DNA of 41,144 bases, taken from a virus. Lineage: Duplodnaviria > Heunggongvirae > Uroviricota > Caudoviricetes. The notes beneath the pieces were generated by a model. That model made no database searches. It was not told the DNA's origin and worked only from the letters and a program-made list of their open reading frames with translations. Both the position numbers and the translations under genes were made by a program. Positions 5,698-41,144 of this stretch are shown in pieces. How positions within the stretch are numbered: position 1 is the stretch's first letter; the number at the start of each line of letters is the position of its first letter. The DNA is taken from the IMG/VR virus record IMGVR_UViG_2579778538_000003. One strand, given 5' to 3'.

Positions 5698-6237
5698 ATG
5701 CAACCACTTACATACCAACAGACTAGCGGATTTAGCCCGACTGCGGTGATAAATCGTTCTCAAACAAAACAGGTGCCAGGCCACGAAAAAATCCGTGATG
5801 CCGTCCGCGCCTGGTCGGCTGTAGATAATCAGGATGTCGTTGCCACACTCATTGTGAATGAGTATCTGGAGCAGGGCGGCGGCACCATCGATTTCCCTGA
5901 TGATGTCAGCCGTGCACGCCAGAAGCTGTTCCGCTTCCTCGATAACAAATTCGATTCTGAAAAATACCGAAATAACGTGCGTGAACTGACCCCGGCAATT
6001 CTGGCGGTACTACCGCTGGAATATCGCGGTTACCTGGTTGAGCAGGATAGCTTCATGGCTAGGTTGGCTGAAATGGAAAAGGAACTCAGTGAGGCAAAAC
6101 AGGCTGTCATTCTCAACGCACCACGCCACCAGAAACTGAAGGAAATTAGTGAAGGTATTGTGTCGATGTTTCGTGTGGACCCAGATCTGGCTGGTCCATT
6201 GATGGCGATGGTTACTACCATGCTGGGGGCGATATGA
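5698..6237 (+). CDS. YdaT-like protein (proposed CII functional analogue), 179 aa
   Basis: Occupies the cII position between cro-like and O; motifs EYLEQGGG and TPAILAVLP resemble Rac YdaT as recalled (unverified). Confidence 0.5.
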   Translation: MQPLTYQQTSGFSPTAVINRSQTKQVPGHEKIRDAVRAWSAVDNQDVVATLIVNEYLEQGGGTIDFPDDVSRARQKLFRFLDNKFDSEKYRNNVRELTPAILAVLPLEYRGYLVEQDSFMARLAEMEKELSEAKQAVILNAPRHQKLKEISEGIVSMFRVDPDLAGPLMAMVTTMLGAI

Positions 6238-6323
6238 CAGGTTCAGAAATGGCGAAAGCCGGTCTGCTGGAACAGAACCGACTTTCAGGTGCAAATCGTA
6301 ACACACTCATTGCGGGAGGAATT

Positions 6324-7253
6324 ATGGCAAACACTGCTGAGATATTCAATTTTCCAGTGCCGGATGCGGCACAAAAGGAGCCGCGCGTGGCAGATCTCGA
6401 TGATGGTTATACGCGCATTGCAAATGAGTTGCTGGAAGCTGTGATGCTGGCCGGATTAACACAGCACCAGCTTCTGGTCTTTCTGGCTGTCATGCGCAAA
6501 ACATATGGCTTTAATAAAAAACTGGATTGGGTTAGCAACGAGCAACTTTCCGAATTAACCGGGATATTGCCGCACAAGTGTTCTGCTGCAAAAAGTGTTC
6601 TGGTAAAGCGTGGGATTTTTATTCAGAGCGGGCGGAATACCGGCATTAATAATGTGGTCAGTGAATGGTCAACATTACCCGAATCAGGTAAGAAAAATAA
6701 AGTTTACCTGAAAGAGGTAAATTTACCTGAATCAGGTAAAAAAAGTTTACCCAAATCAGGTAAAGGCGTTTACCCGAATCAGGTAAACACAAAAGACAAA
6801 CTAACAAAAGACAATATAAAACCTTTTTCGTCCGAGAATTCTGGCGAATCCTCTGACCAACCAGAAAACGATCTTCCTGTGGTGAAACCGGATGCTGCAA
6901 TTCAGAGCGGCAGCAAGTGGGGGACAGCAGAAGACCTGACCGCCGCAGAGTGGATGTTTGACATGGTGAAGACCATCGCGCCATCAGCCAGAAAACCGAA
7001 TTTTGCAGGGTGGGCTAACGATATCCGCCTGATGCGTGAACGTGACGGACGTAACCACCGCGACATGTGCGTGCTGTTCCGCTGGGCATGCCAGGACAAC
7101 TTCTGGTCCGGTAACGTGCTAAGTCCGGCCAAACTCCGCGACAAGTGGACCCAACTCGAAATCAACCGTAACAAGCAACAGGCAGGCGTGACAGCTAGCA
7201 AACCAAAACTCGACCTGACAAACACAGACTGGATTTACGGGGTGGATCTATGA
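6324..7253 (+). CDS. O: lambda-type replication initiator O (start at ATG 6324 with GGAGG ribosome-binding site; longer ORF opens at 6234)
   Basis: N-terminus MANTAEIFNFPV...VADLDDGYTRIANELLEA...RKTYGFNK parallels lambda O; C-terminus nearly identical to lambda O; ori iterons lie inside the gene. Confidence 0.85.
   Translation: MANTAEIFNFPVPDAAQKEPRVADLDDGYTRIANELLEAVMLAGLTQHQLLVFLAVMRKTYGFNKKLDWVSNEQLSELTGILPHKCSAAKSVLVKRGIFIQSGRNTGINNVVSEWSTLPESGKKNKVYLKEVNLPESGKKSLPKSGKGVYPNQVNTKDKLTKDNIKPFSSENSGESSDQPENDLPVVKPDAAIQSGSKWGTAEDLTAAEWMFDMVKTIAPSARKPNFAGWANDIRLMRERDGRNHRDMCVLFRWACQDNFWSGNVLSPAKLRDKWTQLEINRNKQQAGVTASKPKLDLTNTDWIYGVDL
6675..6785. repeat. replication origin iterons: five 17-bp palindromic repeats TTACC(C/T)(G/A/T)AA(T/A)(C/G)AGGTAA inside O, followed by an AT-rich stretch
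   Basis: Direct reading: iterons at 6675-6691, 6704-6720, 6723-6739, 6747-6763, 6769-6785; AT-rich segment 6786-6830; same architecture as lambda ori. Confidence 0.75.
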
Positions 7254-7951
7254 AAAACATCGCCGCACAGATGATTAACTTTGACCGTGAGCAGATGCGT
7301 CGGATCGCCAACAACATGCCGGAACAGTACGACGAAAAGCCGCAGGTACAGCAGGTAGCGCAGATAATCAACGGTGTATTCAGCCAGTTACTGGCAACTT
7401 TCCCGGCGAGCCTGGCTAATCGTGACCAGAACGAACTGAACGAAATCCGCCGCCAGTGGGTTCTGGCTTTCCGGGAAAACGGGATCACCACGATGGAGCA
7501 GGTGAGCGACGGAATGCGTGTTGCCCGTCGGCAGAATAGACCATTTCTGCCATCACCCGGGCAGTTTGTTGCATGGTGCCGGGAAGAAGCATCCGTTACC
7601 GCCGGGCTGCCAAACGTCAGCGAGCTGGTTGATATGGTTTACGAGTATTGCCGGAAGCGTGGTCTGTATCCGGATGCAGAGTCTTATCCGTGGAAATCAA
7701 ACGCGCACTACTGGCTGGTTACCAACCTGTATCAGAACATGCGGGCCAATGCGTTGACTGACGCGGAATTACGGCGCAAGGCTGCCGATGAACTGGCCTG
7801 TATGACCGCGCGAATTAACCGTGGTGAGGCTATACCTGAACCAGTAAAACAACTTCCTGTCATGGGCGGTAGGCCTCTAAATCGTGCACAGGCTCTGGCG
7901 AAGATCGCAGAAATCAAAGCTAAGTTCGGGCTGAAAGGAGCGATGAAATAG
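7250..7951 (+). CDS. P: lambda replication protein P (DnaB loader), 233 aa
   Basis: Translation MKNIAAQMINFDREQMRRIANNMPEQYDEKPQVQQVAQIINGVF... essentially identical to lambda P; ATG overlaps the O stop. Confidence 0.97.
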   Translation: MKNIAAQMINFDREQMRRIANNMPEQYDEKPQVQQVAQIINGVFSQLLATFPASLANRDQNELNEIRRQWVLAFRENGITTMEQVSDGMRVARRQNRPFLPSPGQFVAWCREEASVTAGLPNVSELVDMVYEYCRKRGLYPDAESYPWKSNAHYWLVTNLYQNMRANALTDAELRRKAADELACMTARINRGEAIPEPVKQLPVMGGRPLNRAQALAKIAEIKAKFGLKGAMK

Positions 7952-35000: not shown

Positions 35001-38000
35001 ATGGGTAAAGGCAGCAGTAAGGGGCATACCCCGCGCGAAGCGAAGGACAACCTGAAGTCCACGCAGCTGCTGAGTGTGATCGATGCCATCAGCGAAGGGC
35101 CGGTTGAAGGTCCGGTGGATGGATTAAAAAGCGTGCTGCTGAACAGTACGCCGGTGCTGGACAGTGAGGGGAATACCAATATATCCGGCGTCACGGTGGT
35201 GTTCCGGGCCGGTGAGCAGGAGCAGTCACCGCCGGAGGGATTTGAATCCTCCGGCTCCGAGACGGTGCTGGGTACGGAAGTGAAATATGACACGCCGATC
35301 ACCCGGACCATCACGTCGGCAAACATCGACCGTCTGCGCTTTACCTTCGGTGTACAGGCACTGGTGGAAACCACCTCAAAGGGAGACAGGAATCCGTCGG
35401 AAGTTCGCCTGCTGGTTCAGATACAGCGTAACGGTGGCTGGGTGACGGAAAAAGACATCACCATTAAGGGCAAAACCACCTCGCAGTATCTGGCCTCGGT
35501 GGTGGTGGATAACCTGCCGCCGCGCCCGTTTAATATCCGGATGCGCAGGATGACGCCGGACAGCACCACAGACCAGCTGCTGAACAAAACGCTCTGGTCG
35601 TCATACACCGAAATCATCGATGTGAAACAGTGCTACCCGAACACGGCACTGGTTGGCGTGCAGGTGGACTCGGAGCAGTTCGGCAGCCAGCAGGTGAGCC
35701 GTAATTATCATCTTCGCGGGCGCATTCTGCAGGTGCCGTCGAACTATAACCCGCAGACGCGGCAATACAGCGGTATCTGGGACGGAACGTTAAAACCGGC
35801 ATACAGCAACAACATGGCCTGGTGTCTGTGGGATATGCTGACCCATCCGCGCTACGGCATGGGGAAACGTCTTGGTGCGGCGGATGTGGATAAATGGGCG
35901 CTGTATGTCATCGGCCAGTACTGCGACCAGTCGGTGCCGGACGGCTTTGGCGGCACGGAGCCGCGCATTACCTGTAATGCGTACCTGACCACACAGCGCA
36001 AGGCGTGGGATGTGCTCAGTGATTTCTGCTCGGCGATGCGCTGTATGCCGGTATGGAACGGGCAGACGCTGACGTTCGTGCAGGACCGACCATCAGATAA
36101 GGTGTGGACCTATAACCGCAGTAATGTGGTGATGCCGGATGATGGCGCGCCGTTCCGCTACAGCTTCAGCGCCCTGAAGGACCGCCATAATGCCGTTGAG
36201 GTGAACTGGATTGACCCGGATAACGGCTGGGAGACGGCGACAGAGCTCGTGGAGGATACGCAGGCCATTGCCCGTTACGGCCGTAACGTCACGAAGATGG
36301 ATGCCTTTGGCTGTACCAGCCGGGGGCAGGCACACCGCGCCGGGCTGTGGCTGATTAAAACGGAGCTGCTGGAAACGCAGACCGTGGACTTCAGCGTGGG
36401 TGCTGAAGGGCTTCGCCATGTACCGGGGGATGTCATTGAAATCTGCGATGATGACTATGCCGGTATCAGCACCGGTGGTCGTGTGCTGGCGGTGAACAGC
36501 CAGACCCGGACGCTGACGCTCGACCGTGAAATCACGCTGCCATCCTCCGGTACCACGCTGATAAGCCTGGTTGACGGAAGTGGCAATCCGGTCAGCGTGG
36601 AGGTTCAGTCCGTCACCGACGGCGTGAAGGTGAAAGTGAGCCGTGTTCCTGACGGTGTTGCTGAATACAGCGTATGGGGGCTGAAGCTGCCGACGCTGCG
36701 CCAGCGACTGTTCCGCTGCGTGAGTATCCGTGAAAACGACGACGGCACGTATGCCATCACCGCCGTGCAGCATGTGCCGGAAAAAGAGACCATCGTGGAT
36801 AACGGGGCGCACTTTGACGGCGAACAGAGTGGCACGGTGAATGGTGTCACGCCGCCCGCGGTGCAGCACCTGACCGCAGAAGTCACCGCAGACAGCGGGG
36901 AATATCAGGTGCTGGCGCGATGGGACACACCGAAGGTGGTGAAGGGGGTGAGCTTTATGCTTCGCCTGACCGTGGCAGCGGATGACGGCAGTGAGCGGCT
37001 GGTCAGCACGGCCAGGACGACGGAAACCACATACCGCTTCAGGCAACTGGCGCTGGGGAACTACAGGCTGACAGTCCGGGCGGTAAATGCGTGGGGGCAG
37101 CAGGGGGATCCGGCGTCGGTATCGTTCCGGATTGCCGCACCGGCAGCGCCATCGCGGATTGAGCTGACGCCGGGCTATTTTCAGATAACCGCAACGCCGC
37201 ATCTTGCCGTTTATGATCCGACGGTACAGTTTGAGTTCTGGTTCTCGGAAAAGCGGATTGCGGATATCAGGCAGGTTGAAGCCAGCGCGCGTTATCTTGG
37301 TACGGCGCTGTACTGGATAGCCGCCAGTATCAATATCAAACCGGGCCATGATTATTATTTTTACATTCGCAGTGTGAACACCGTTGGCAAATCGGCATTT
37401 GTGGAGGCTGTTGGCCAGCCGAGTGATGATGCATCCGGCTATCTGGATTTTTTCAAAGGAGAGATAGGGAAAACCCATCTGGCTCAGGAGTTGTGGACGC
37501 AGATTGATAACGGTCAGCTTGCGCCTGACCTGGCTGAAATCAGGACGTCCATTACGGATGTCAGCAATGAAATCACGCAGACCGTCAATAAGAAACTGGA
37601 AGACCAGAGTGCAGCGATCCAGCAGATACAGAAGGTTCAGGTTGATACAAATAATAACCTGAACAGCATGTGGGCTGTGAAGCTGCAGCAGATGCAGGAC
37701 GGACGCCTTTATATCGCGGGTATTGGTGCCGGTATTGAGAATACCCCTGACGGTATGCAGAGTCAGGTGCTGCTGGCGGCGGACAGGATTGCGATGATTA
37801 ATCCTGCGAATGGCAATACAAAGCCGATGTTTGTTGGGCAGGGCGATCAGATATTCATGAACGAAGTGTTCCTGAAATATCTGACGGCTCCCACCATTAC
37901 CAGCGGTGGCAATCCCCCAACGTTTTCACTGACACCTGATGGTCGACTTTCTGCGAGAAATGCGGATATCAGCGGTAACGTGAATGCGAACTCCGGGACG

Positions 38001-38483
38001 CTCAATAATGTCACGATTAACCAGAACTGTCGGATTCTGGGAAAACTGTCAGCTAACCAGATTGAAGGTGATATTGTCAAAACGGTGGGAAAAGCCTTTC
38101 CGAGAAATGGCAGTTATGCCAGCGGTACAATAACGGTCACTGTGTACGATGACCAGGCTTTTGACCGTCAGATAGTCGTCCCCCCCGTTCTGTTTCGCGG
38201 TGGTAAGCATGAAAACTTCAACAGCAACAACCAACAGTCATACTGGTATTCAACCTGTAAGCTGCAGGTGCTGAAGAACGGACAGGAAATCTTTCAGCAA
38301 CCCGCGACGGATGTCAGCAGGGTATTTTCATCAGTCATTGATATGCCTGCCGGACACGGCCATGTCACCCTGACTTTCAATGTTTCTTCATATGGTGCAA
38401 ATAACTGGACGCCAACGACCAGTATCAGCGACCTTCTTGTTGTCGTGATGAAGAAATCAACAGCCGGCATCAGTATCAGTTGA
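35001..38483 (+). CDS. J: central tail fiber / host-specificity protein J, 1160 aa
   Basis: [54 protein letters not shown]... matches lambda gpJ N-terminus; ORF is 28 codons longer than lambda J (1132 aa, from memory). Confidence 0.93.
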
Positions 38484-38502
38484 ATTTTAAAACCCAAATT
38501 CG

Positions 38503-38527
38503 GGCACCAGAAATGGTGCCTTTTTTA
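38503..38527 (+). terminator. rho-independent terminator downstream of J
   Basis: GGCACC-agaaat-GGTGCC followed by TTTTTTATTT. Confidence 0.75.
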
Positions 38528-38541
38528 TTTGTGGAGTGAAT

Positions 38542-40563
38542 ATGGCAGTACAGATTTCAGGTGTGCTGAAAGACGGTGCAGGAAAACCGATACAGAACTG
38601 CACCATTCAGCTCAAAGCAAAACGTAACAGCACCACAGTTGTGGTGAACACGGTGGCCTCAGAAAATCCGGATGAAGCCGGACGTTACAGCATGGATGTT
38701 GAGTATGGCCAGTACAGCGTCGCCCTGCTGGTTGAAGGTTTTCCGCCTTCACATGCCGGGACCATCACCGTGTATGAGGATTCTAAGCCGGGGACATTGA
38801 ATGATTTTCTGGGCGCTGCAACAGAAGATGATGTTTGTCCGGAGGCACTGTATCGTTTTGAAAAGATGGTGGAAGAGGCGGCACGCAACGCTGAAGCCGC
38901 CTCTCAGAGCGCAGCGGCAGCAAAGAAATCAGAAACAGCAGCGGCATCGTCCAGGAACGCGGCGAAAACATCAGAGACGAATGCAGGTAACAGCGCGAAA
39001 GCGGCAGCTTCTTCAAAAACAGCCGCACAAAACGCAGCAACAGCGGCAGAACGTTCAGAGACAAATGCCCGTGCGTCAGAAGAAGCCTCCGCAGACAGTG
39101 AAGAGGCTTCCCGCCGTAATGCAGAGTCAGCCGCTGAAAATGCCGGAGTCGCCACCACAAAAGCGCGGGAGGCCGCAGCAGACGCAACAAAGGCCGGGCA
39201 GAAAAAGGATGAGGCTCTGTCGGCAGCGACACGAGCTGAAAAGGCGGCAGACCGCGCAGAAGCCGCAGCGGAAGTGACTGCAGAGCCCTGTGCGAATATA
39301 GTGCCGCCGCTGCCTGATGTGTGGATACCGTTTAACGATTCACTGGATATGATTACGGGTTTTTCGCCATCTTATAAAAAGATAGTTATTGGTGACGATG
39401 AAATAACAATGCCAGGCGACAAGATTGTTAAGTTTAAACGTGCTTCAACAGCAACGTATATTAATAAGTCCGGCCAACTCAAGCTTGCTGAAGTTGACGA
39501 ACCGCGATTTGAGCGCGATGGCTTATTGATTGAAGGACAGAGGACAAATTATCTGAGGAACTCAAATAAACCAGACTCATGGACTGTTCATTCCGCACTG
39601 AATAAAACATTTGGCACTGATAAACAGGGGTTCAATTATGCCACGGTGACACCCACGGAAAGTATAGTGGGAACAACAGGTGGCTATACTGTGCATGGTG
39701 TGGTTGCAGCAGACAGATTCCCGCTGGCAAGTGGTGAATGTTTCACTTTTTCGTGCCGGGTTAAAGGCGCTAAAGCACGATGCAGGTTAAGAGTTTCAGT
39801 TATTATTGGTGGAACAGATACCTTCTCTGCTGACTCTTATCTTGATCTGGATACCCGGATCGCAACAGTAAGCGGTAATACATCCCTTATAACAGCCAAA
39901 GCTGAACAACAGGGCGAGTGGACCTACTATGAGGCCACTTATACAGCTAATACGGACATTGATACCGTTAACTGTGCTTTTTATATGACAAATAAAATAA
40001 GTAATGAGACATTCTATGATGACTCAACATTAACCATGACGACGCCGCAAATTGAACTGGGCAATACGGCATCGTCATTTATTGTAACTACAATGCCAAC
40101 AACACGCGCAAGTGATGTAGTTACTATCCCATCGCAGAATAACCTGTCAACACGGCCTTTTACGGTATTGTGCGAAGTAAGCAGGAACTGGAGTACACCG
40201 CCCAATGTTGCGCCAAGGATATTTGATGTTGGAGGGCACAGTATTGATGATAATTATTTATCGCTGGGGTTTGTTGCAACAGGAAAGATAAGCGCCAACG
40301 TAGGAATGGTTCAGCCACAAATTGCCTCAGATGGAGAAAGGTTCATTGTGGGTGTGAGAGCTAAATCTGATTTATCAGTAAATGCAATATGCAATGGTAA
40401 TTATACAACAAACCTTAATGGTAAAATATTTGGAGTTACAGCAACATCGTACCGGTTTGGTGGGCAGACCGCAGCAGGAACGCGTCATTTGTTTGGACAC
40501 ATCAGAAATTTCAGAGTCTGGTTTAAAGAATTAAATGACAGGCAAATCAAGGAGGCAGTATGA
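38542..40563 (+). CDS. side tail fiber protein (Stf-like N-terminus, Ala-rich shaft, distinct C-terminal lectin/LamG-like domain), 673 aa from ATG 38542
   Basis: N-terminus MAVQISGVLKDGAGKPIQNCTIQLKAKRNSTTVVVNTVASENPDEAGRYSMDVEYGQYSV... resembles lambda Stf; Ala/Ser/Glu-rich region; C-terminal ...GHIRNFRVWFKELNDRQIKEA resembles a concanavalin/LamG-type terminal motif (from memory); GGAG ribosome-binding site. Confidence 0.75.
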   Translation: MAVQISGVLKDGAGKPIQNCTIQLKAKRNSTTVVVNTVASENPDEAGRYSMDVEYGQYSVALLVEGFPPSHAGTITVYEDSKPGTLNDFLGAATEDDVCPEALYRFEKMVEEAARNAEAASQSAAAAKKSETAAASSRNAAKTSETNAGNSAKAAASSKTAAQNAATAAERSETNARASEEASADSEEASRRNAESAAENAGVATTKAREAAADATKAGQKKDEALSAATRAEKAADRAEAAAEVTAEPCANIVPPLPDVWIPFNDSLDMITGFSPSYKKIVIGDDEITMPGDKIVKFKRASTATYINKSGQLKLAEVDEPRFERDGLLIEGQRTNYLRNSNKPDSWTVHSALNKTFGTDKQGFNYATVTPTESIVGTTGGYTVHGVVAADRFPLASGECFTFSCRVKGAKARCRLRVSVIIGGTDTFSADSYLDLDTRIATVSGNTSLITAKAEQQGEWTYYEATYTANTDIDTVNCAFYMTNKISNETFYDDSTLTMTTPQIELGNTASSFIVTTMPTTRASDVVTIPSQNNLSTRPFTVLCEVSRNWSTPPNVAPRIFDVGGHSIDDNYLSLGFVATGKISANVGMVQPQIASDGERFIVGVRAKSDLSVNAICNGNYTTNLNGKIFGVTATSYRFGGQTAAGTRHLFGHIRNFRVWFKELNDRQIKEAV

Positions 40564-40838
40564 AAGATTTAACTTTGAAATTTCCTGGTAACAGAGAGTT
40601 TAAATCCTTCCTGTCATCTCTTGACTGGGAGGAGGATGAAGACCTCCAGAATAAACTGTTAGTCGATGAAATTGGTTTCACCTACACAGAAACAGGGGTA
40701 ACAGAAGAGGGAGAACCTGTCTGTGTCCGGAATGACGGTTATTTTGTCAACATTCGCATTCTTGATGACTTGTTTGATGTTTCTGTATTCTCTGATTATG
40801 TCGTGGAGCTGGAAACACCGCTTCGGGAATGGAGCTGA
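40560..40838 (+). CDS. hypothetical acidic small protein (92 aa), translationally coupled to the tail fiber gene
   Basis: ATG overlaps the stf stop (ATGA); AAGGAGG ribosome-binding site; Asp/Glu-rich; occupies the position where a tail fiber assembly gene is expected but is too short and not recognisably Tfa. Confidence 0.5.
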   Translation: MKDLTLKFPGNREFKSFLSSLDWEEDEDLQNKLLVDEIGFTYTETGVTEEGEPVCVRNDGYFVNIRILDDLFDVSVFSDYVVELETPLREWS

Positions 40839-40850
40839 AAGGAGGAAATA

Positions 40851-41144
40851 ATGGATATAAGCCCCTTACTTCATGCACTTTGTGCTGTGGCTGCGCAGAT
40901 ACTGGTTGGTCTTTTTACCGGAAACTGGGCTTACGGAGCGATAGCCGGTTGTACGTTCTTCATTGCGCGTGAACATACCCAGGCAGAATATCGCTGGATT
41001 GAAATGTTCGGGCATGGCAAGCGAATGAATATGCCGTGGTGGGGCGGTTTTGATCCGCGAGCTTGGGATGTGGCAAGCCTGATGGATTTTGCTGTGCCGG
41101 TGGTGGCGTGTCTGCTGGTCTGGCTGTTGGTTAATCGTGGGTGA
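40851..41144 (+). CDS. hypothetical small membrane protein (97 aa)
   Basis: AAGGAGGAAATAATG ribosome-binding site and start; hydrophobic segments LLHALCAVAAQILVGLFTG and FAVPVVACLLVWLLV; stop at the window end. Confidence 0.5.
   Translation: MDISPLLHALCAVAAQILVGLFTGNWAYGAIAGCTFFIAREHTQAEYRWIEMFGHGKRMNMPWWGGFDPRAWDVASLMDFAVPVVACLLVWLLVNRG

Follow-up and report, generated by a model that had tools for sequence, protein, structure and literature searches.

A lectin-type distal module and two small downstream genes in the side-fibre locus of a phage-21-like lambdoid prophage

Which genes stand where lambda has lom, the distal half of stf and tfa at the end of IMGVR_UViG_2579778538_000003, an IMG/VR virus of the Caudoviricetes, and what would they do there? 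The stretch analysed (41,144 nucleotides, hereafter the window) ends with the gene of an Stf-like fibre of 673 amino acids (aa), followed by two small genes for proteins of 92 and 97 aa. A first reading of the letters by a model (the original prediction) had proposed that the distal part of the fibre was swapped, and that the small proteins could be a novel fibre chaperone and a receptor-blocking or superinfection-exclusion membrane protein. The best explanation as a whole, to which we give a probability of roughly 0.6, is a phage-21-like side-fibre locus with an exchanged cassette, a 92-aa partner protein and a separate 97-aa element.

It is very probable that the distal module of the fibre was swapped and that the incoming part has a lectin fold. 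Judged from its sequence, the fibre is chimeric, its two parts being sharply joined at about residue 251. The lambda-Stf-like N-terminus described in the original prediction is clearly present. PF08400 (prophage tail fibre N-terminal domain) scores 225 bits where the cut-off is 26.6; in PDB 9e7m/9mgh, the lambda Stf chain is matched by residues 1-94 (E 1.5e-49), and lambda orf-401 is 85% identical to the fibre N-terminus across 110 aa. The shaft that follows is 97-98% identical to phage 21 Stf and 53% identical to residues 239-336 of lambda orf-401. In total, identity to phage 21 and its relatives is 97-100% over residues 1-250, with the remainder reaching only 41-46% to other variants.

As for the lambda genes themselves, no homologue of Lom, orf-314 (the C-terminal half of Stf) or Tfa was found in the whole window (tblastn, best E 0.47), in agreement with the claim that lom is missing and that no tfa can be recognised. 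When orf-314, the lambda/T4 gp37-like distal half, was compared with the fibre C-terminus or the window, the best blastp and tblastn matches had E values of 0.22-1.2. In terms of guanine plus cytosine (GC) content, J has 55.9%, the N-terminal part of the fibre 55.5%, the distal module 42.8%, the 92-aa gene 41.9% and the 97-aa gene 52.7%.

The module (residues 251-673) recurs widely. An exhaustive HMMER search returned 1,380 representative clusters at E <= 1e-3, and among the best 150 of these the entire module lies at the extreme C-terminus in 121, behind N-termini that differ greatly in length. Some relatives carry a P2-type N-terminus (PF12571) in place of the lambda type. The motif P[LF]PDVW[IA]P[LF]xDSL opens the module in 55 distant relatives, and the same motif stands at the joint here. 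Furthermore, a non-lambdoid prophage (L003-5) was reached through a divergent homologue of the 92-aa gene, with a fibre gene upstream of it. This fibre, of 671-704 aa, has an unrelated N-terminus, and its last ~430 residues are 45% identical to residues 251-673, with the homology starting at residue 251-253. The gene order in that prophage is lambda-type portal, fused protease-capsid, fibre, Peptidase_S74 fibre and tail-tube gene. Since the module recurs C-terminally behind unrelated N-termini, the distal ~420 residues are a mobile unit carried on varied fibre stalks.

Conservation within the module is uneven. Among the E. coli variants, the junction is 72-91% identical and the last 33 residues 61-79% (leaving out the incomplete L093 fibre), with the two jelly-roll cores between them only 29-39% identical. 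Variable cores between conserved arms give the pattern of a specificity cassette exchanged via its conserved arms.

A trace of the former arrangement is found beyond the window end (Table 1). In window-identical phages, the sequence directly past the 97-aa stop codon holds, in another frame, what is left of the tfa 3' end (ATEEETPLLEARKKYRVLL in 1H12 and phage 21). This relic has 20-38 codons and closely matches the lambda Tfa C-terminus, and the Escherichia ruysiae counterpart has it too. Because the 3' end of tfa remains, the incoming DNA (the module with the 92-aa and 97-aa genes) seems to have replaced the distal part of stf and most of tfa. By its sequence match the relic supports the swap, although it lies outside the window. 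In two of the phage records (L189 and L001) it is followed by a convergent sitDCBA cargo, an iron/manganese transporter.

We propose that the distal half of Stf in a phage-21-like (Jouyvirus) lambdoid prophage would have been exchanged by recombination for a widespread receptor-binding cassette. The lambda-type N-terminal domain, which would dock on the tail tip, and the Ala-rich shaft would have been retained. From residue ~251 onwards the fibre would have acquired a module of ~420 aa, composed of a conserved junction, a GhsB-like jelly-roll resembling a carbohydrate-binding module (CBM), and a terminal LamG/pentraxin-like lectin domain.

A separate observation concerns insertion sequence (IS) elements, which repeatedly break the distal module. 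Three transposase open reading frames (ORFs) are present in phage 4A7 (L006, 3126-5542), and L043 is interrupted as well. In Lambda_4B5 the matched region contains IS4, and in several E. coli chromosomes it contains ISEc52; the small genes stay intact. Given these repeated interruptions, the fibre is probably often inactivated in prophages.

The different C-terminus with a LamG/concanavalin-like motif, as originally read, was borne out at the level of the fold, by family matches and by structure prediction. NCBIfam NF048003 ("phage head spike fiber domain") covers the middle of the fibre, residues 329-523, with positions 1-181 of its 182 (65.7 bits against a cut-off of 36). A profile of 32 diverse module relatives matches Rcc01080, the head-spike fibre of the gene transfer agent (GTA) RcGTA (6tb9), with E 4e-41. 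At about 1e-16, the same profile matches tail fibre gp17 (9occ), E217 gp45 (8env) and Pa193 gp46 (9b45), and it also weakly matches pentraxins, a sialidase CBM and clostridial neurotoxin binding domains. PF13385 (Laminin_G_3) spans the last 147 residues (model positions 4-151 of 151) with 20.3 bits, under the gathering score of 27.6; among the module relatives, 23 of 32 match it at E <= 0.01 (best E 1.6e-8). The terminal domain is predicted to adopt a two-sheet jelly-roll fold that can be superimposed on LamG/pentraxin domains.

An AlphaFold2 model of the fibre was built on an alignment of 30 variants. Its predicted local distance difference test (pLDDT) values are 80-93 in the middle jelly-roll, 60-84 in the terminal domain and below 50 in the first 86 module residues. 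We considered these 86 residues as a region that requires a partner to fold and rejected the idea, since the alignment is shallow (30 sequences) and some of these residues have a counterpart in GhsB.

In terms of receptor, GhsB (Rcc01080) binds the capsular polysaccharide of Rhodobacter (PMC10218006), and its homologues occur here and there in phages, labelled for instance "putative carbohydrate-binding" (PMC5026251). The module being homologous to this capsule-binding GTA head-spike fibre, the carbohydrate receptor suggested in the original prediction is plausible. We infer a surface glycan (O-antigen or capsule) as the probable primary receptor, as would be expected from hypervariable cores between conserved arms.

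The second part of the question is what stands in the place of tfa. It is indeed an acidic protein whose synthesis is coupled to that of the fibre. The start codon of the 92-aa ORF lies inside the fibre stop (an ATGA overlap), with the ribosome-binding site AAGGAGG, and the protein has an isoelectric point of 4.05, with 22 acidic against 8 basic residues and without a hydrophobic segment. It matches phrog_1361, a family of unknown function, over its full length (E 1.6e-39). Searches of Pfam (none at E < 0.1), NCBIfam, PADLOC and PDB sequences gave nothing usable, and in BFVD only uncharacterised phage proteins were matched. Comparison with Tfa and Caudo_TAP found no homology in sequence or fold, and no solved structural relative. 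The original prediction had named two outcomes that would speak against it, Tfa homology of the 92-aa protein and a lambda-type Stf C-terminus; we looked for both and found neither.

By a word-indexed search, E. coli and Shigella alone have relatives of the 92-aa protein. Wherever an IMG/VR or phage locus with a homologue is intact, the gene lies directly 3' of the module, with an overlap of -4 or -1, and the exceptions are IS-interrupted fibres only. A species scan (one genome per species) gave modules from Escherichia, Silvania, Buttiauxella, Leclercia, Atlantibacter and Aeromonas. These are 25-54% identical to that of the window, save one 99% copy in E. ruysiae, and some lie in Mu-like myophage contexts. 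Every complete module of the scan (16 of 16) is followed by an ORF of 93-104 aa, usually at -4 or -1. The remote small ORFs, recovered by an iterated profile, match phrog_18574 and/or phrog_1361 (E about 1e-3 to 1e-30) and share the motifs M[KR]D[LI]xL[KR]F, [LI]D[VI][IV]G, GY[HF][VA]N[LIV]R and PxR[VE]W[AS]. The 92-aa gene is strictly linked to the module, be the context lambda-like, Mu-like or of another sipho-type, in Enterobacterales and Aeromonas.

Such a strict coupling of the family to the module across distant phages is not described in the literature that we searched. We found no study of the small genes in work on phage 21 Stf, lambdoid Stf chaperones or GhsB homologues, and the announcement of the phage 21 genome does not discuss them. 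Another observation was made in two Aeromonas loci (L098, 4185-4415; L101, 4191-4490), where a Cys-rich ORF of 76-99 aa with the sequence CCKQHDNDY lies between the fibre and the 92-aa homologue. By eye this resembles the catalytic motif of phospholipase A2; Pfam gave no match.

As for function, we lean slightly towards the 92-aa protein being an assembly or partner protein of the fibre, as its synteny suggests. Its own identity remains at 90-93% where that of the fibre cores drops to ~33%. This conservation despite divergent cores, the tfa position and the coupled synthesis argue for a cognate partner acting on the conserved parts of the module. The protein would most likely be a dedicated assembly factor, made in stoichiometric amounts with the fibre through translational coupling. 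Its gene would have arrived with the module as one low-GC unit and would now occupy the place of lambda's tfa. The chaperone proposal is thus strengthened in one part, the strict linkage across distant phages, and its functional part stays a suggestion from gene order.

Downstream, the 97-aa ORF begins 12 nucleotides past the 92-aa ORF, with its own AGGAGG ribosome-binding site. That it encodes a membrane protein agrees with hydrophobic segments at about residues 5-39 and 74-96, and the annotators of phage 21 called it a putative membrane protein with two transmembrane domains. It matches phrog_1443, also of unknown function, over positions 1-96 of 97 (E 2.4e-58).

The distribution of this gene differs from that of its neighbour. 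Its GC content is unlike that of the rest of the cassette, and it is absent from the non-lambdoid cassette copy. A homologue with 77% identity lies directly 3' of, and overlapping, the tailspike gene of the P22-like phage JEP4, and in Halomonas phage phiHAP-1 a homologue with 39% identity overlaps the tail-fibre-assembly gene at its end. Homologues with 44-47% identity occur in Aeromonas phages, jumbo phages included. In 80 close E. coli loci (L108-L187), the gene is downstream of the module and the small gene in 79; in 47 a Peptidase_S74 fibre gene is inserted before it, and the 97-aa gene is still the last. The 97-aa family is mobile on its own, and its members are the last genes of receptor-binding clusters in lambdoid, P22-like and Halomonas phages.

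More than half of the related E. coli loci, and loci in several other genera, have a short fibre gene of 227-358 aa between the two small genes. In L091 (4617-5657), L092 (4593-5297) and L094 (4527-5486), the short fibre proteins between the small genes have a Peptidase_S74 chaperone domain. The cluster with this gene may build a branched side fibre of two specificities, of which the window would be the minimal version.

Across Escherichia, Halomonas and Aeromonas, 17 residues of the 97-aa family are invariant, most of them polar or aromatic. They concentrate in the loop between the hydrophobic segments (R40, E41, Q44, E46, Y47, R48, W63, G66, F67 and W72). A periplasmic position of this loop is probable from the hydrophobicity pattern, the C-terminal Arg and the call of two transmembrane domains, N-in/C-in, by the phage 21 annotators. 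No promoter-like site was found in or before the gene, and for this reason it should be read with the late operon. A lipoprotein (IAGC, residues 31-34) was considered and rejected, as Cys34 is not conserved and the N-terminal region has no positive charge.

We see the 97-aa protein as a separate element, which would be located in the inner membrane with a conserved, probably periplasm-facing loop rich in Trp, Arg and Glu, and co-transcribed at the end of the late operon. It would shield the infected cell or its progeny from adsorption or DNA entry, by exclusion or receptor masking. This weak assignment, guessed from position, is doubtful. The exclusion or receptor-blocking role of the original prediction was not established by our analysis. 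The gene has no promoter of its own and no match to a defence family, and is not tied to the fibre type.

Several points weigh against the explanation given at the outset. Globular lectin heads may fold without a chaperone, and RcGTA has capsule genes after ghsB and no small partner gene. The fibre model is moderately confident overall (pLDDT 66, with module residues 1-86 below 50). Contact of the 92-aa protein with the fibre is predicted from genomic linkage only. The part of the fibre with which this protein co-varies most is the neighbouring C-terminus (rho 0.90); this could also stem from physical linkage, so that we conclude no interaction from it. In roughly half of the contexts, the small gene has a short Peptidase_S74 fibre gene behind it, which would fit an adaptor role. 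The 97-aa protein, in turn, matches no known exclusion, conversion, lysis or defence family in Pfam, NCBIfam, PADLOC or PDB. A role purely in lysogenic conversion is disfavoured, because the gene lacks its own promoter and homologues are found in large, apparently virulent Aeromonas phages.

The adaptor role deserves a closer look. The 92-aa protein would be a structural cap or an adaptor on which a short Peptidase_S74 protein docks as second fibre; the receptor-binding complex would then be branched, with its second fibre absent here. A protein of this type is encoded directly after the small gene in L003-5, L091, L092 and L094 (with Peptidase_S74 matches) and in 47 of the 80 E. coli loci; L093, L097, L103 and L104 encode proteins similar to these fibres, by likeness only. 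Constancy of the 92-aa protein beside varying receptor-binding cores is also what one expects of a docking piece. However, the small gene is equally conserved in many lineages without the Peptidase_S74 gene, the window and phage 21 included, and no similarity to known adaptor domains was found, which leaves this role unlikely. We consider it very improbable that both small genes are hitch-hiking cargo (morons) without any role in the fibre, placed where they are by recombination joints. They are annotated as hypothetical everywhere and belong to no family of known function. They also sit at the end of the late operon, where accessory genes are typically found, and in related phages the convergent sitABCD cargo follows. 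But the start/stop overlap of the 92-aa gene, its shared GC content and a linkage that survived transfer across phage types, from Enterobacterales to Aeromonas, do not suit mere cargo, nor does the repeated translational coupling of the 97-aa gene to receptor-binding genes in unrelated phages.

For the 97-aa protein, a change of the cell surface is another reading, for example by interference with O-antigen polymerisation or ligation, so that progeny are not trapped and the lysogen is sero-converted. Epsilon15 and D3 encode small hydrophobic polymerase inhibitors beside their tailspike genes, and P22-like phages often carry O-antigen modification genes at the spot next to the tailspike. The 97-aa gene likewise adjoins receptor-binding genes of the glycan type (the lectin fibre here, a P22-like tailspike in JEP4), and invariant residues (R40, E41, Q44, E46, Y47, R48, W63, W72) lie in the loop predicted to be periplasmic. 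Set against this are the absence of homology to such proteins, the lack of a promoter for expression in the lysogen, and a topology that is predicted only; we regard the surface change as unlikely. Returning to the partner-and-cassette explanation, it has a bolder version, which we put forward tentatively and would on balance not expect to hold. Here the 92-aa protein would represent an undescribed family of receptor-binding protein partners (a chaperone or cap, transferred together with the module) for lectin-headed fibres with GhsB-like and LamG domains, unrelated to Tfa, gp38, gp57A and S74. The 97-aa protein would represent a new, periplasm-facing family made late, protective against self-adsorption or superinfection.

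The locus is far from rare, and its novelty was overstated in the original prediction. The 2.66-kilobase region after J is 100% identical at the nucleotide level to a dozen lambdoid coliphages (1H12, Lambda_2E9, ev087 and others) and 99.8% to PhiR47_2; 1H12 belongs, like phage 21, to the genus Jouyvirus. In phage 21 itself (OL657228) the order is J, terminator, stf, a hypothetical protein of 92 aa, a putative membrane protein of 97 aa and convergent sitDCBA. Among 5,426 complete E. coli genomes, 515 (about 10%) have at least 80% of positions 39292-41144, and 1,906 (about a third) have any part of them. RefSeq labels the region as a "phage head spike fiber domain-containing protein" and two hypothetical proteins. 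That phages evolve by exchanging a fibre tip along with an accessory gene behind it is well known, and this type of fibre already has a curated domain model. What we see is ordinary modular exchange with two uncharacterised accessory families, in an arrangement that exists as described, yet is frequent in E. coli and was already there in phage 21.

The features of the locus are collected in Table 1. J, terminator and fibre gene are in direct succession, as first read. The hairpin (GGGCACC-AGAA-ATGGTGCCT, with the T-run after it) begins 18 nucleotides past the end of J, at the site 3' of J where lambda has lom; a terminator is annotated at the same site in phage 21. For the fibre start, the GTG at 38536 of the program-made ORF list was rejected, because homology begins at the ATG in Table 1 (MAVQISG...), the position that pairs with residue 1 of lambda Stf in the alignment to PDB 9e7m. 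The window closes with the final base of the 97-aa stop codon. As many IMG/VR prophage calls of this locus stop at the same codon, the window end is an artefact, probably of a prophage call trimmed to a gene boundary.

Table 1. Features of the side-fibre locus, in window coordinates unless another record is named
Feature	Position	Strand	Remarks
J (central tail fibre / host specificity protein)	35001..38483	+	1160-aa ORF; same gene annotated J in phage 21 and PhiR47_2
Intrinsic-terminator-like hairpin and T-run, between J and stf	38502..38531	+	8-bp stem with 5 GC pairs, then TTTTTTATTTG
Stf-like fibre, 673 aa	38542..40563	+	ATG start, GGAG ribosome-binding site ahead
Lambda-Stf-type N-terminal attachment domain, residues 1-131	38542..38934	+	PF08400, E 2.8e-67
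Ala/Glu-rich shaft, residues ~107-250	38860..39291	+	Lambda/phage 21 type, GC 54-58%
Swap junction and conserved module start, residues 251-328	39292..39525	+	GC drop from ~55% to ~43%; opens with PLPDVWIPFNDSLDMITGF
CBM-like jelly-roll, "phage head spike fibre" (GhsB-like) domain, residues 329-523	39526..40110	+	Hypervariable core
LamG / pentraxin / concanavalin-A-like terminal domain, residues 524-673 and stop	40111..40563	+	
92-aa acidic soluble protein (phrog_1361)	40560..40838	+	Translationally coupled to fibre; candidate cognate assembly/partner protein
97-aa small inner-membrane protein (phrog_1443)	40851..41144	+	Last gene of fibre cluster; hydrophobic segments
tfa relic	L189 7170-7230; L001 6700-6790; L090 4870-4992		Beyond window end

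Elsewhere in the window, downstream of the replication genes (O, 6234-7253; a 233-aa ORF, 7250-7951), the prophage carries an inverse autotransporter of 1421 aa (8201-12466, plus strand), an adhesin of the intimin/invasin type with IAT_beta (E 5.6e-101) and Big_1/Invasin_D3 repeats. Adjoining it is a convergent gene for a BD-FAE alpha/beta hydrolase of 347 aa (12503-13546, minus strand). The two look like virulence-type cargo.

If our explanation is true, re-targeting lambda-type particles with such fibre heads would require the transfer of both the module, from residue ~251 on, and the 92-aa gene. Flanked by conserved arms, the hypervariable lectin cores would form a ready-made library of probable glycan specificities. 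Furthermore, phrog_1361/18574 and phrog_1443 are abundant and conserved families that are unstudied.

Lastly, we compared the locus with known systems. With GhsB of RcGTA the module shares a homologous CBM-like jelly-roll, with NF048003 above its cut-off. GhsB has 325 aa and sits on the capsid vertices via its N-terminal 10 residues (PMC10218006). With this length it cannot span the 423-aa module, and the match to the profile stops at about position 385 of 528. Here the domain forms the middle of a tail fibre. Wedge/triplex proteins of the E217 gp45 and Pa193 gp46 type are baseplate subunits that anchor fibres (PMC10329688). The module differs from these Pseudomonas myophage proteins (8env, 9b45) in being a distal fibre head and in its domain order.

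Tail fibre assembly proteins and adhesin chaperones include Tfa of lambda, P2 and Mu, T4 gp38, gp57A and the intramolecular Peptidase_S74. A small gene immediately 3' of the receptor-binding fibre end, and exchanged with it, follows the same logic as the Tfa-type chaperones. Small membrane proteins or lipoproteins beside receptor-binding genes are represented by T5 Llp, Cor of phi80 and N15, HK97 gp15 and the polymerase inhibitor of epsilon15. The 97-aa protein is like the Llp/Cor/gp15 class in size, membrane location and position, and unlike it in having no homology, an unconserved lipobox and no promoter of its own.

In the case of Stf and Tfa of lambda (Ur-lambda), the likeness lies in the PF08400 attachment domain, the position after J and the small gene directly 3' of the fibre gene. 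Unlike in lambda, the distal half is unrelated to orf-314, the small protein has 92 aa instead of the 194 of Tfa, with neither a Caudo_TAP nor a structural match, and lom is absent. Phage 21 and the Jouyvirus phages 1H12, Lambda_2E9 and ev087, in whose records the small genes are without an assigned function, have the identical gene order. Compared with phage 21, the variant of the hypervariable core differs (the module is 44% identical), while the two small genes are 93% and 100% identical.

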